The position numbers and the translations under genes are program-made. Under the pieces are notes generated by a model. That model was given only the letters and a program-made list of their open reading frames with translations, searched no databases and was not told the DNA's origin. DNA of 21,707 nucleotides from a virus (Duplodnaviria; Heunggongvirae; Uroviricota; Caudoviricetes). This document shows, in pieces, positions 4,466-7,504 of the stretch. Numbering within the stretch: position 1 is the stretch's first letter; every line of letters begins with the position of its first letter. The stretch lies in the IMG/VR virus record IMGVR_UViG_2529292922_000023; one strand, given 5' to 3'.

Positions 4466-4959
4466 TGTTGCCCCCACAAACAGACTTCACGCTCAATCTC
4501 GCGGCGAGTCATCAGCCCTTTCCATTGCTTACCGCCAGCGTATGTCCAGCGCCGTAGCTGATCACATGCGCCTTTGATATCGCCCTGGTTTATTTTGCGA
4601 AGAAGCGTCGATGTTCTGAAATTGCCAGCGCCCACGTTGTAAACGAACGAGTAAAGAGCGCCGCGCGTTGTTTCCGGTATATCGACGTTGATGTACGGGT
4701 TAATTTGTCTGGCGACCGTGGCAAGGTCTTTATTCAGGAGGGCTTTGCATTCTGCTTCGGTATACGTTTTACCGAGCATAATGTCTTTTCCGGTGTGCCC
4801 GTAACATACAGTCCATACACCAACGATATCTTTATATGGTATGTAGCTGACGCCTTCCAGACCATCGTTACCACTTGGGCCAGTGATTAACACAGATGCT
4901 ATAGCAATAGCCCCGCCACCAATAGCCGCAGCAACGGCTTTTCGTAATGATGGAGGCAT
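4462..4959 (-). CDS. R: SAR endolysin (phage 21 R-type lysozyme, GH24)
   Basis: N-terminal Gly/Ala-rich signal-anchor-release segment ([18 protein letters not shown]) followed by a T4-lysozyme-like catalytic region ([22 protein letters not shown]); matches my recollection of P21 R. Confidence 0.9.
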
Positions 4960-5174
4960 TATTCACCTCTCGCAGCCTTACGCTTGTCTTCTCTGATTTT
5001 GAAGTACAGATTTGTCAGGTAAGTCAGAAAGCCCAGAACCAGACTTCCCAGCACACCAATCGCAGCCCACTGTGACGGACTGACCTGATCAAGCCACTGT
5101 AAAAACCAGTAGCCAGCACTACCAGCGGATGTTCCGTAGGCAATGCCAGTAGAGATTTTGTCCATTGATTTCAT
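4959..5174 (-). CDS. S: Pinholin (class II holin, S21-like) with dual-start motif
   Basis: 71 aa, MKSMDK... dual start (Met1/Met4), two TM segments, C-terminal basic tail; matches my recollection of phage 21 S. Confidence 0.85.
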
Positions 5175-5296
5175 AGCAACGCCTCCGCCAGTAACGGATT
5201 GCGTAGTTCTTATATTGGGAAGGGGAAAAAAGAAGGCCGCAGCGTAACTATCACTAATAAATTCAGGACAGCCAGTGGCTACGGCTCAGTTTGGGT

Positions 5297-5341
5297 TGTG
5301 GCGGCCGGAATCGAACCGGCTTCCATCGGTGCGCTGCCGAT
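5297..5341 (-). other. tRNA-like 3' fragment (T-arm plus anticodon-arm-like hairpin), not a complete tRNA
   Basis: Minus strand has a canonical T-arm GCCGG-TTCGATT-CCGGC (5304..5320) preceded by a perfect 5-bp stem / 7-nt loop hairpin ATCGG-CAGCGCA-CCGAT (5325..5341); no matching 5' acceptor strand or D-arm found and no CCA. Confidence 0.35.
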
Positions 5342-5489
5342 TGCAGTACGCGCGGCGGTCAGCTATATGACTAGTATTTTCACTATCGCCTATCTGCTAG
5401 CTCGCCATTGAGCTTCACCACAACGATAAGAGCACTGCGCGGCACCTTTCACCAATTCCGCGAGGTCTGCGGGTTCAATGCTCTTACCT

Positions 5490-5526
5490 GTTGTGCAGAA
5501 AAAAAACCACACGGCAGCGAGTTTAA
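5490..5526 (-). terminator. Intrinsic terminator on the late (minus) strand, tR'-equivalent position upstream of S
   Basis: Minus-strand RNA forms CCACAC-AGC...GCU-(GCC)-GUGUGG hairpin followed by U8 (forward A8 at 5490..5497); the flanking CTGCACAACAGGTAAGAGCATTGA matches what I recall of the lambda tR' region. Confidence 0.5.
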
Positions 5527-5576
5527 GCTGTGTGGCGAAGTTACCTCTCTTCACCAAGTATTCGGTAATAAAATAA

Positions 5577-5609
5577 CTTGTGGTGTTCTCGTTTTTATGC
5601 CGATAAAAT
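5577..5609 (+). promoter_or_regulatory. Candidate sigma70 promoter for the moron gene
   Basis: TTGTGG (5577..5582), 18-20 nt spacer, TAAAAT-like -10 inside GATAAAAT, about 25 bp upstream of GGAG RBS and ATG 5639. Confidence 0.3.
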
Positions 5610-5638
5610 AAACGGTCCACTTTCAAATGGAGCGATTC

Positions 5639-6559
5639 ATGATTTTTCTCAGAACTGAAAACGGCATCGAGAAACTTGAAAACTGGGAGGAAATTATATC
5701 CAGACCAAACTTTGTCACCACTATAGACAAAGGAGTTCAACAACTTGAGGAGATAATTGGTTACTACAAATTTAAAGAAGAAATCCACTGTGGTCTAACT
5801 GGTTGCAACCAACCACATCAAATGGGTTATATTGTAAAAACATCTAGTGGCATTGAAACCAACATCGGAAATAAATGTGGTAAAAACGAATTTGGTGTGG
5901 AATTTGGTGAAAACGTTCTTAGTTTCAATAAATTTATGCAACTCGAAACCAATCGGGAAATTATTAGCACCGCAAAAAGTAAATGTGAAGCGTGGCAAAA
6001 AAATATTGAAACGATACGAAATATCAAACCCACAATAGATTATCTATCTTCTACCATCGAAAATAGTAAAAATTCCAATTACTCCGGAAGACTTGGTGCT
6101 ACAGAAATTCGTTTTTTGACCAAGAACCAGACAGGCCTTGTAACCCTTTCTGAAGTGGAAACTGATAAGAATACCAAAACAATTCTGTTCGCAATGAATG
6201 AACACATGCGCGAGTCTGGAGAGGCAATAAGTGAATTCTACATAGGAAAAGTATCATTTAGTCATGTTCTTTTACCAGAAAACAATCTTCGTGATTTTTT
6301 TGTTGCGCTCAAAGAAGATCTAAAAAAAATTCAGTGTATTGATCTACAAACAGCCCCAAGCCCAGAAATTTCTAATGTTGCCAAAATTGCCAGTTCAATC
6401 GAAGAACGAATCAAGCGATTAAAAAAACTGAAACATGAAGCCAGTAAATTCCTAACTAAAAAAAATCTGCGTCCCATCGCAAACAAAATAAAATACTCAT
6501 CGACAGCGGATGAACTTGAATTCCATAATTTCGAACGCTTTTTAAAAGGGCTGAAATGA
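5639..6559 (+). CDS. Moron: AT-rich hypothetical protein (about 306 aa), opposite strand, inserted between Q and the lysis cassette
   Basis: Long clean ORF on the opposite strand to all flanking phage genes; markedly AT-rich; GGAG RBS 6 nt before ATG 5639 (ORF-track start 5627 has no RBS); stem-loop terminator 4 nt after the stop; Lys/Asn/Glu-rich with a Cys/His cluster (HCGLTGCNQPH...KCGK) and predicted coiled-coil C-terminus; no family recognised. Confidence 0.7.
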   Translation: MIFLRTENGIEKLENWEEIISRPNFVTTIDKGVQQLEEIIGYYKFKEEIHCGLTGCNQPHQMGYIVKTSSGIETNIGNKCGKNEFGVEFGENVLSFNKFMQLETNREIISTAKSKCEAWQKNIETIRNIKPTIDYLSSTIENSKNSNYSGRLGATEIRFLTKNQTGLVTLSEVETDKNTKTILFAMNEHMRESGEAISEFYIGKVSFSHVLLPENNLRDFFVALKEDLKKIQCIDLQTAPSPEISNVAKIASSIEERIKRLKKLKHEASKFLTKKNLRPIANKIKYSSTADELEFHNFERFLKGLK

Positions 6560-6673: not shown

Positions 6674-7504
6674 TTAGTTCACATCATCACCAAAACTTGT
6701 CACATTCTGAAAAGCAATATCGGCCTTACGCTCTTCCTGGTGGCAAATGTCAACCAGAGAATCAAGAAACGGCTTCCAATTACGCGTCCATGTCCTGACA
6801 TGTAGCTCGGGTATCCGCTTCAGTACAACTTTATATACTGTGGTAGACGGTACCGTGGAAAATCCATTTCCGCTGCAACGTTCGCAGATTTTAAACACTG
6901 GCACACCACGCTCGCTTGTGGCTTTGCGGTCCAGTACCTCTCCCTTTCCACCACAACGACACCTGGCACTTATCACTCCCTTCCCTTTACATACATCGCA
7001 AACGACTGGTACAACTTCCGTTACCTCTGTCCATTTCTCCCAGTCTGACGGTCGAACAGCACGGGAGCGACTGGCCCAATATGGTGCTTTACCCCATGGG
7101 TATGAAACCTTACGAATGACCTGCTTACGGGGTGTTAGTCCGGTACCACTGCAACTATGGCATGTTACGCTGGTGTCCGCCGATCGGGAATACTCAGCAA
7201 AAGCAAACTGCGCCAGTACCAGCATACACCAGCCAAATTCACCACCAGCTGCTTTACGCACATTCTTCGGTGCAATTTCCATCGCGTGACGCGCCAGCGC
7301 TTGGACTGCCATCTGCTCATCAGTCTTGCTGATACCGGCCTTCCCGAAGAAGGCCGCCAAGCCAAACCGTTCACGATTGCTGGTGGTACCAATAGCCGCC
7401 ATAACATCGGTGCCTGTAAGACGTTCCGGAGAGGTTCCTTTCACATCGTCGCCGATATACATTCCCTGAGGACTGAAGTATTTTAGCGATGCCTCAAGCT
7501 TCAT
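6674..7504 (-). CDS. Q: Late antiterminator Q (lambda Q family) with expanded zinc-binding region
   Basis: N-terminus (KYFSPQG...LTGTDVMAAIG) and C-terminus (KVVLKRIPELHVRTWTRNWKPFLDSLVDICHQEERKADIAFQNVT) align with lambda Q (LIPNLTQPTWSRTVKPLYDALVVQCHKEESIADNILNAVT); central region carries four CxxCxGxG-like repeats. Confidence 0.85.
   Translation of the reverse strand: MKLEASLKYFSPQGMYIGDDVKGTSPERLTGTDVMAAIGTTSNRERFGLAAFFGKAGISKTDEQMAVQALARHAMEIAPKNVRKAAGGEFGWCMLVLAQFAFAEYSRSADTSVTCHSCSGTGLTPRKQVIRKVSYPWGKAPYWASRSRAVRPSDWEKWTEVTEVVPVVCDVCKGKGVISARCRCGGKGEVLDRKATSERGVPVFKICERCSGNGFSTVPSTTVYKVVLKRIPELHVRTWTRNWKPFLDSLVDICHQEERKADIAFQNVTSFGDDVN

Follow-up and report, generated by a model that had tools for sequence, protein, structure and literature searches.

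What does a T-arm of textbook appearance signify when it is found upstream of a phage holin gene, within a leader and outside any annotated transfer RNA (tRNA) gene? We addressed this question for the minus strand of a 21,707-nucleotide (nt) stretch of DNA from a virus of the class Caudoviricetes (IMG/VR record IMGVR_UViG_2529292922_000023; hereinafter, the window). The original prediction described, upstream of the holin gene, a T-arm preceded by a perfect hairpin with 5 base pairs (bp) and a 7-nt loop, reported no 5' acceptor strand, no D-arm and no CCA, and offered three explanations, namely a decayed tRNA, a recombination scar or a structured leader element. The T-arm and the hairpin, which are separated by GGAA, are both confirmed, and they represent the 3' third of a larger element: positions 5424-5294 of the minus strand encode a complete, non-decoding 131-nt tRNA mimic with a five-way junction (Table 1). 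Among the three options, the structured leader element is the right one.

The features that had seemed to be missing are all present. A 5' acceptor strand forms 9 bp, including one G.U pair, with the sequence that follows the T-arm; a D-arm with a GG dinucleotide comes next; and CCA is located directly 3' of the 9-bp stem. The 5' half lies about 55 nt farther upstream than it would in a tRNA, and was overlooked because the 55-nt long arm is inserted between the D-arm and the hairpin.

Structure and conservation of the tRNA-like domain

The long arm consists of a basal stem (GCAG, 5397-5394, with CTGC, 5346-5343), an inner helix (5390-5382 with 5363-5354), an invariant 5-nt bulge, GCGCG (5353-5349), and an 18-nt apical loop (5381-5364). 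The minimum free energy (MFE) structure obtained with RNAfold for positions 5422-5293 is a five-armed cloverleaf (-45.5 kcal/mol), and the T-loop motif GGTTCGANTCC occurs once in the window compared to 0.02 occurrences expected. The GCGCG bulge could pair with the CGC of the hairpin loop; both motifs are invariant, so that covariation is uninformative with respect to this pairing.

The structure is supported primarily by the comparison of homologs. We aligned 29 distinct homologous sequences and evaluated 42 proposed base pairs against a control in which the 3' partners were slid by 1-3 columns, and against 500 shuffles. In this alignment, 93.9% of the cells pair, compared with 28-46% for the slid partners; both sides are changed in 18 of the 42 pairs, and none of the 500 shuffles reaches any of these measures. 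The closing stem, both helices of the long arm and the T stem covary (Table 1), the latter with the variants GCCGG/CCGGC, GTAGG/CCTAC, GATGG/CCATC, GTTGG/CCAAC and GCAGG/CCTGT. The D stem and the 17-nt hairpin are invariant and hence provide no covariation information either way, and the first four acceptor pairs (U-A, G-C, U-A, G-C) are nearly invariant. The G.U pairs (GCAGG/CCTGT and, in the apical loop, UCUGGA) are formed on this strand only, indicating that the conserved structure sits in the RNA of the late-transcription strand. When the alignment was turned into a covariance model, the window copy scored 152.8 bits and 60 further loci 125-156 bits, and no second copy was detected within the window.

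The hexamer at the center of the apical loop occupies the same alignment columns throughout and retains its self-complementarity through at least four independent double changes. The variants are ACUAGU (in the window), ACCGGU, UCUAGA, UCGCGA, (A)UCGCGA(U), (A)GCUAGC(U) and UCUGGA, the last of which is self-complementary only via G.U pairs. When the hexamer positions are treated as base pairs, pairing is seen in 100% of the cells, with covariation at two of the three positions (AU15/UA13/GC1 and UA21/GC5/UG2/CG1). A loop-loop homodimer is the simplest reading because the hexamer cannot fold on itself and there is no second copy in cis; no locus with two copies, as needed for early/late heterodimers, was found. 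The pattern of sequence conservation thus suggests that the hexamer is a candidate kissing-loop dimerization site. The dimerization initiation site of human immunodeficiency virus type 1 is similarly a 6-nt, purine-flanked palindrome in an apical loop, and its lineage-specific palindromes similarly stay self-complementary. In contrast to that site, whose loop has 9 nt, the phage loop comprises 14-20 nt; the two biological settings are unrelated, and the phage dimer is predicted from sequence.

The tRNA-like part of the element contains a 7-bp acceptor stem (5422-5416 with 5303-5297) that extends to 9 bp, a D-arm with G18 and G19, and a T-loop of the form UUCRANY closed by G53:C61. Given the D-loop GG and the canonical T-loop, a tRNA-type elbow is to be expected. 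Position 8 is occupied by A in place of the U8 of tRNA. There is no decoding anticodon arm: the hairpin loop, CAGCGCA, has A33 and C37, that is, lacks both U33 and a purine at position 37, and the apical loop of the long arm, with its 14-20 nt across the homologs, is not a decoding loop. Positions -1 and -2 pair with 73 and 74, with covariation (U:A, G:C, A:U); the discriminator position, paired with -1, is variable (A, C or U). The closing stem is followed by CCA in the window, HK75, lambda and PdC23, by ACC in the class of relatives located in N leaders (see below), and by ACU, CAU or CAA in other lineages.

ARAGORN identifies no tRNA genes and no transfer-messenger RNA (tmRNA) in the native sequence, and its intron search also returns nothing. 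The Rfam check proposed with the original prediction produced nothing at the gathering thresholds, and no tRNA match even at E values up to 10. Once the interior of the long arm is replaced by a 7-nt loop, ARAGORN calls a class-II tRNA at the default threshold; once the long arm is deleted, a tRNA(gcg) is called, only at a relaxed threshold. The covariance model aligns the tRNA-Thr of phage 21 (24 bits), skipping the long arm and taking the hairpin as the anticodon arm. These modified sequences and this alignment permit the hairpin to be regarded as either a class-II variable arm or a non-decoding anticodon arm; on either reading of the five-way junction, the element is a tRNA mimic, not a tRNA. 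The possibility, raised at the outset, that a covariance model would find a complete tRNA with an overlooked 5' half was borne out with respect to the 5' half, which exists, but not with respect to the tRNA, given that no model calls a canonical one.

A permissive Rfam scan yielded a sole weak match, to the 3' end of tmRNA (18.4 bits, with a threshold of 47; E = 1.3e-5), in which only the last ~60 nt are well aligned. An origin as a tmRNA (ssrA) fragment was rejected because only the T-arm and the acceptor align, below the threshold, and ARAGORN with the -m option is negative; the 3:70 acceptor pair is U:A rather than G3:U70, and there is neither a tag reading frame nor pseudoknots.

Table 1. 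The tRNA-like element, the module that contains it and the adjacent features of the window
Feature	Positions	Strand	Evidence or remark
Closing ("acceptor") stem, 5' strand Y, GTTGTGGTG	5424-5416	-	5/9 pairs changed on both sides; 96.6% of cells paired
D-arm GCTC-AATGGC-GAGC, preceded by AA (5415-5414)	5413-5400	-	stem essentially invariant, 100% paired
Long irregular arm	5397-5343	-	3/6 basal and 6/10 inner pairs changed on both sides
Self-complementary hexamer ACTAGT, center of apical loop	5375-5370	-	29/29 distinct sequences self-complementary
Hairpin ATCGG-CAGCGCA-CCGAT	5341-5325	-	nearly invariant
T-arm GCCGG-TTCGATT-CCGGC, canonical T-loop	5320-5304	-	stem covaries (2/5 pairs)
Closing stem, 3' strand Z, CGCCACAAC (5303-5295), then CCA (5294-5292)	5303-5292	-	5295 is the 3' boundary of the mobile module
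X, CACAAC, 5' boundary of the module	5495-5490	-	complementary to the first 6 nt of Y
P0, hairpin with 13-bp stem, GGTAAGAGCATTG (5488-5476)/CAGTGCTCTTATC (5437-5425), variable interior	5488-5425	-	folds; covariation
tR'-like terminator hairpin CCACACAGC...GCTGCCGTGTGG and T8 run, just upstream of the module	5535-5499	-	position aligns with the annotated Tr' of HK75
Downstream long hairpin GAGCCGTAGC...GCTGCGGCC	5286-5226	-	common to phage 21, HK75, HK629 and lambda; outside the tRNA-like module
Class II (phage 21-type) holin, first gene past the leader	4959-5174	-	Pfam PF04971, E 1.4e-35
Antiterminator Q	6674-7504	-	Pfam PF03589, E 2.6e-52

The mobile module and its interchangeable interiors

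The presence of the tR'-like hairpin upstream, aligned with that of HK75, implies that the element lies in the Q-dependent late leader. A simple scan gave no promoter or terminator matches in the window, and the tR'-like hairpin was not flagged because its loop is too long. The tRNA-like domain is embedded in a module with the order X, one A, P0, Y, tRNA-like interior, Z, in which P0 abuts the closing stem without a linker. BLAST searches detected the same 143-156 nt, with identities of 74-99% across the relatives, in the late leaders of HK75, vB_EcoP-611R6 and PhiR5_2, and in Salmonella siphophages of the Skate/seszw/Akira type, the Pantoea phage PdC23 and the P22-like phage BIS08P22. Homology with the Skate-like phages, PdC23 and others begins with GCACAACAGG and ends with CCACAAC, defining a mobile unit of 201 nt (5495-5295). 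It travels as one piece between the late leaders of lambdoid phages, N leaders and virulent siphophages of Salmonella.

The junctions of the module are mosaic in nature: the Skate-like phages are homologous to the window up to 5295, and phage 21 from 5294 onward. The link to the tRNA clusters between Q and S that had been drawn for this locus is correct by position, in that tRNA-Asn and tRNA-Thr of phage 21 fill the same slot, with homology to the window resuming 3 nt before the 3' end of tRNA-Thr. In the Skate-like phages, the module sits between two tail genes in antisense orientation, and no gene follows it on its own strand; a search for a promoter of its own in these phages found one TTGACA-17-TAGATT site, a count no higher than in shuffles. 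A tRNA-Met gene is located ~100 nt downstream of the module in Akira.

The flanking sequences are under constraint of their own. X takes the forms CACAAC, TGCAAC, CATAAC, CGCAAC and CACAAT and is complementary to Y at 6/6 positions in nearly all members of the class with P0; the variants keep the pairing by wobble or compensation, and Z covaries with Y at the same position, as illustrated by a change of the first base of Y from G to A that is accompanied by C to T in both X and Z. Because X:Y and Y:Z are both maintained, two mutually exclusive folds are kept, namely a 19-20-bp hairpin formed by X:Y together with P0, or P0 stacked on the closed tRNA-like domain. The P0 stem also covaries, with GGAGAGAGTA/TACTCTCTTC in Klebsiella, GGAAATCGCTTTG/CAAAGCGATCCCC in Enterobacter and AGGTAATGGCACT/AGTGCCATTACCT in locus L084. 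A boxA reading of GTGCTCTTA in the 3' strand of P0 was discarded, as the motif is not conserved in the Klebsiella and Enterobacter variants.

By sequence comparison, the tRNA-like interior is an exchangeable cargo, with the same closing stem and flanks holding other interiors. In the late leader, X, P0, the 9-bp stem and the downstream sequence are common to HK75 and the window, with the tRNA-like interior, to HK629, with another fold, and to lambda, with a 67-nt interior. The sequences of HK629, JEP4 and E212 match those of HK75 and the window exactly over X, P0 and GTTGTGGTGAA, and do so again from CGCCACAA onward; the intervening sequence is a different, 101-nt fold. The late leader of lambda (L137 ~387-560; ~44786-44960 of the lambda record) contains X, the P0 of the Skate-like phages, and GTTGTGCTG...CAGCACAAC around its interior, with a compensated G:C to C:G change in the 9-bp stem. 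Its MFE and centroid folds show the two competing pairings, with X:Y and P0 formed in the centroid. The region is contained in the annotated orf-64 of lambda, which probably overlaps a structured RNA.

In a second class of relatives, the element is located between nutL and an N-type gene, 24-48 nt before the start of the latter. Prophage L010 has the boxA/boxB (nutL), the flanks and the N start of lambda, but holds the tRNA-like domain where lambda has the interior of its N-leader hairpin. Both have the base stem in common (GCTTTGGGGTGTGTG/CACACACCACCAAAGC in lambda, GCTTTGGGGTGTGGTG/CACCACACCACCAAAGC in L010), and the N-leader stem reads GGGGTGTGTG/CACACACCACC in lambda compared with GGGGTGTGGTG/CACCACACCACC in L010. 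In this class, the 9-bp stem is followed by one bulged A and then by 7-13 further covarying bp, an extension that is not present in the class of the window. Homology of the lambda N-leader interior itself with the tRNA-like domain was considered and rejected: a pairwise alignment hinted at a decayed T-arm, but the covariance model gave no signal, with only 6.7 bits, on the wrong strand, in the lambda N leader (L134). The apex of this lambda hairpin carries a palindrome, UCCGGA, and its 3' side, CGTTCAGGACTACAACTGCC, is loosely T-arm-like, a homology that the covariance model does not support.

A separate observation concerns an "H-type" family of cargoes, which occupies the same 9-bp socket in HK629 (L135 722-842) and mEp460 (L136 ~491-630) and was not found in the window. 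The first hairpin loop of this family is GGCUGA and the last is AGAUCAGCA; within these loops, GCUGA and UCAGC are perfectly complementary, which suggests, from the sequence, that a Watson-Crick "elbow" substitutes for the contact between D-loop and T-loop. Between HK629 and mEp460, covariation is seen in the stem of the first hairpin, and a further match to the first 26 nt is found in phage P1 near plp.

Possible functions of the tRNA-like RNA

Taken together, these observations are best accommodated by a leader-borne tRNA mimic that is excised by host ribonucleases (RNases) and acts as a free RNA, a reading to which we assign a probability of roughly 0.55 and in which the release, the dimer and the partner are inferred. 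A free, trans-acting RNA is the most economical solution because the same constrained cargo is present in two different sockets and, in virulent phages, as a stand-alone antisense unit. The domain would be transcribed within the Q-dependent late leader, downstream of tR', and RNase III would cut the long double-stranded stems, that is, P0 with or without X:Y in the window, and the outer stem of ~20 bp in the N-leader class. The tRNA-like body could then become a substrate for RNase P, 3' trimming and CCA repair. The freed, stable RNA would pair with a second copy through the palindromic loop and, with its tRNA elbows and acceptor ends, would engage a host factor that binds tRNA; the most plausible role would be that of a decoy or sponge for a tRNA-directed enzyme or a defense nuclease.

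The proposed release draws on the similarity to the RNase III hairpin in the N leader and the RNase III sites in the late leader of lambda (Kameyama 1991; Daniels 1988), with flanks and a base stem that are identical between lambda and the L010 relative. According to PMC9032294, which cites Kameyama et al. 1991, RNase III activates lambda N expression and acts on the N mRNA, and the title of Daniels et al. 1988, as listed in PMC7547250, refers to RNase III processing sites in lambda late RNA. The interiors are unrelated, and those of lambda are devoid of tRNA features. A processing site of the lambda type would be expected to comprise about two turns (~20 bp) of near-continuous double-stranded RNA. 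That available in the window amounts to the 13 bp of P0 and the 6 bp of X:Y with one bulged A, in the alternative fold, or to P0 stacked on the 9-bp stem; in the N-leader relatives, it amounts to 9 bp and 7-13 bp. The RNase III cuts in the lambda N leader, which we take to be at +88 and +197, would leave the expected 2-nt 3' overhang when placed on the N-leader stem, and in L010 would release exactly the domain closed by 9 bp, with an ACC tail.

Several points weigh against this scenario. That RNase III would cut P0 or the outer stem is a prediction from positional homology with lambda. The single-sequence fold is unexceptional, with a z-score of only -1.8, so that the structural case rests on the comparison of homologs rather than on energy. 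The 3' tail is not conserved and positions -1 and -2 are paired, neither of which favors RNase P cleavage or charging. Many of the sequences were collected from IMG/VR, species-representative genomes and metagenomes with patterns that required the hairpin, the T-loop or the D-arm, so that the invariance of these parts is in part a matter of construction; the BLAST-derived alignment shows the same invariance. Finally, other interiors fit the same socket, and the conserved function could therefore lie in the stems and not in the cargo.

This last point leads to the alternative that appears to survive best, although we consider it rather unlikely, namely a purely cis-acting leader module in which P0, X:Y and Y:Z provide RNase III entry sites and a folding switch, and the interior is merely a stable cap or spacer. 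Such a module would set the 5' end, the stability or the translation of the downstream mRNA, which encodes the lysis genes here and N elsewhere. The unrelated interiors in the same socket of lambda, HK629 and mEp460, the location of the N-leader class exactly at the position of the lambda RNase III hairpin, 24-48 nt before the N start, and the maintenance of both X:Y and Y:Z, with lambda folding into either alternative, are all compatible with this possibility. A spacer, however, would not be expected to keep a T-loop, the D-loop GG, a 17-nt hairpin, the GCGCG bulge and a covarying palindrome at 74-99% identity in four genomic contexts. Furthermore, the Skate-like copy is antisense to its neighbors and has no gene downstream to regulate on its strand, and in the N-leader relatives, cleavage of both strands by RNase III would detach the cargo from the mRNA.

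More doubtful still is a chargeable, non-decoding tRNA-like RNA that would be aminoacylated after trimming and CCA addition or repair, and used off the decoding path, in the manner of the tRNA-like domain of tmRNA or of tRNAs that serve as amino-acid donors. The variable discriminator paired with -1, the ACU, CAU or CAA tails of other lineages, A8 instead of U8, the lack of G3:U70 and of a tag frame, the negative tmRNA search with ARAGORN and the score of 18.4 bits compared to 47 all argue against charging, notwithstanding the canonical elbow, the 7-9-bp acceptor helix with its nearly invariant first four pairs, and the best weak Rfam match being to the 3' end of tmRNA. CCA does follow the stem in the window, HK75, lambda and PdC23, and the ACC of the N-leader class would become ACCA with the addition of one A; several synthetases (Leu, Ser, Ala) ignore the anticodon.

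The two readings that involve a former or hidden tRNA gene are very improbable. The mosaic junctions located exactly at the 3' end of the element in phage 21 and the Skate-like phages, the tRNA genes in the same slot of phage 21, a 58-nt "tRNA-Ser" annotated on the 3' half and the weak tmRNA match would fit a decayed tRNA gene or a scar, that is, a 3' fragment of tRNA or tmRNA left by integration or mosaic exchange. In a pseudogene of this sort, neither the pairing nor a palindromic loop would be retained; the element is complete, including its 5' half, compensatory substitutions are found in six helices, the non-tRNA motifs are kept invariant, and 74-99% identity is maintained across lambdoid, P22-like, Skate-like and Pantoea phages, so neither decay nor a scar finds support. 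Equally improbable is a tRNA gene interrupted by an intron or insertion whose removal yields a decoding tRNA: ARAGORN does call a tRNA when the arm is shortened or deleted, but with the -i option it finds nothing in the native sequence, the arm itself covaries and carries invariant motifs, the residual loop CAGCGCA lacks U33 and a purine at 37, and 55 nt are far too few for a bacterial group I intron.

Returning to the excised tRNA mimic, a bolder, tentative extension is that lambdoid and other enterobacterial phages might carry interchangeable structured-RNA cargoes in the RNase III stems of their N and late leaders, with the tRNA-shaped cargo being freed, forming a symmetric kissing dimer via its lineage-specific palindrome, and trapping or bridging, by its two tRNA-like ends, a host tRNA-binding factor such as a tRNA-targeting defense nuclease or a modifying toxin. 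If so, textbook lambda leaders would harbor an RNA-only device for counter-defense or host takeover.

Related RNAs, distribution and genomic surroundings

Among known systems, the tRNA genes located between Q and S of lambdoid phages (tRNA-Asn and tRNA-Thr of phage 21; the tRNAs of Stx phages) are similar to the element in occupying the same slot, downstream of pR'/tR' and upstream of the holin, and in the acceptor-type stem, the D-arm with GG, the canonical T-arm and the mosaic junction at the 3' end. Unlike these genes, the element has no decoding anticodon loop, is not called by tRNA finders, and shows A8, an extra 55-nt arm and a 9-bp closing stem in which -1 and -2 are paired. The CI RNA of P4 and the c4 RNA of P1 (C4 in Rfam) are phage regulatory RNAs cut from leader transcripts by RNase P. 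If released as proposed, the element would similarly be a small structured RNA from a phage operon leader, freed by host enzymes of tRNA or RNA processing; in contrast, it has no C4 match at the gathering thresholds or at E values up to 10, no complementary target boxes were found, and the only pairing surface that it conserves is complementary to itself. The tRNA-like domain of tmRNA is also a non-decoding tRNA mimic, with similarity in the T-arm and the acceptor, whereas the phage element possesses a real D-stem and an additional hairpin and lacks the G3:U70, pseudoknots and tag open reading frame (ORF). Among non-coding RNAs of 100-140 nt, tRNA-like modules are present in YrlA (a bacterial Y-RNA-like RNA) and in the stable RNA species 1 and 2 of T4; the latter are encoded in a tRNA cluster of the phage and have no known function, and in YrlA, both termini of the chain are located in the arm opposite the elbow, so that its topology is permuted relative to the phage element. 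No relationship of the element to YrlA or to T4 species 1 and 2 was found at the sequence level or in Rfam. The Pas small RNAs of prophages of enteropathogenic Escherichia coli (PasA, PasC and PasD, beside the holin) were also rejected as relatives, the published fragments of PasA and PasD being unrelated in sequence; in the PP2 locus of E2348/69, the sequence that precedes the class II holin shows no alignment with the element.

The element is absent from Rfam 15, its sequence strings occur in no searchable paper, and nothing relevant was found on phage tRNA-like decoys or kissing dimers. As a kind, tRNA-like non-coding RNAs are known; the arrangement as exchangeable cargo in lambda-type RNase III stems is, as far as could be found, undescribed.

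The element is common. It matches 236 of 5426 complete E. coli genomes, in 164 of which most of the query is covered (~3-4%), and is annotated in none; about 92-99 phage records match. Pattern scans matched at least 120 contigs in IMG/VR, 45 metagenomic contigs and only 4 species-representative genomes (Klebsiella, Enterobacter, Superficieibacter and a Cellvibrionaceae contig), so that the taxonomic range rests mainly on prophages and metagenomic contigs. The Cellvibrionaceae contig, JAUVQU010000080.1 (L130; 9.7 kb), from a marine-type metagenome-assembled genome, carries a late leader identical to the HK75 type of E. coli and is probably a binning or contamination artifact. All examined records are unannotated except for mislabels: the aforementioned "tRNA-Ser", in vB_CECAV_048 (L002 1587-1644), "polyubiquitin-A" in vB_EcoP-611R6 and vB_EcoP-683R2 (ON470589, ON470594), and hypothetical ORFs elsewhere, as currently assigned by annotation pipelines. 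In the window, the ORFs 5199-5411 (plus strand) and 5390-5788 (minus strand), which overlap the element, are most likely spurious.

The leaders between Q and S and between pL and N of lambdoid phages are among the best-studied regulatory regions, and yet this RNA, which is present in several phage genera including virulent ones, has been overlooked. Its characterization would add a new class of tRNA mimics with a possible dimerization loop and would reveal the stems of the lambda RNase III sites as sockets for exchangeable RNA modules; HK75, HK629 and lambda, which differ only in cargo, offer a concrete and inexpensive experimental system.

Some features of the surroundings recur. Several unrelated phages (L005, L006, L008, L135 and the ATTGTGATG-class loci) have free-standing HNH or homing endonuclease genes, which are common around phage tRNA clusters, no more than 1-2 kb away from the element. 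In three prophages of the Enterobacter/Klebsiella type (L132, L017, L029), the element is followed after 10 nt by an intrinsic terminator (GGCTACCTTCGGGTGGCC and a T6 run), which precedes by ~80 nt a gene for a holin-like protein of 129 amino acids; with this arrangement, read-through transcripts made without Q would end as a discrete small RNA. The long hairpin downstream of the module is followed by a T-run in the window and phage 21, where it may be a second terminator just before the holin, whereas HK75, HK629 and lambda continue with CTACACATGA instead. Apart from Q and the holin, lysozyme and Rz are confirmed in the window. A 310-amino-acid ORF on the opposite strand (5627-6559, plus strand) separates Q from the late leader; it has no Pfam match and looks like an inserted "moron", and the same arrangement is found in two other IMG/VR loci (L013 and L124).

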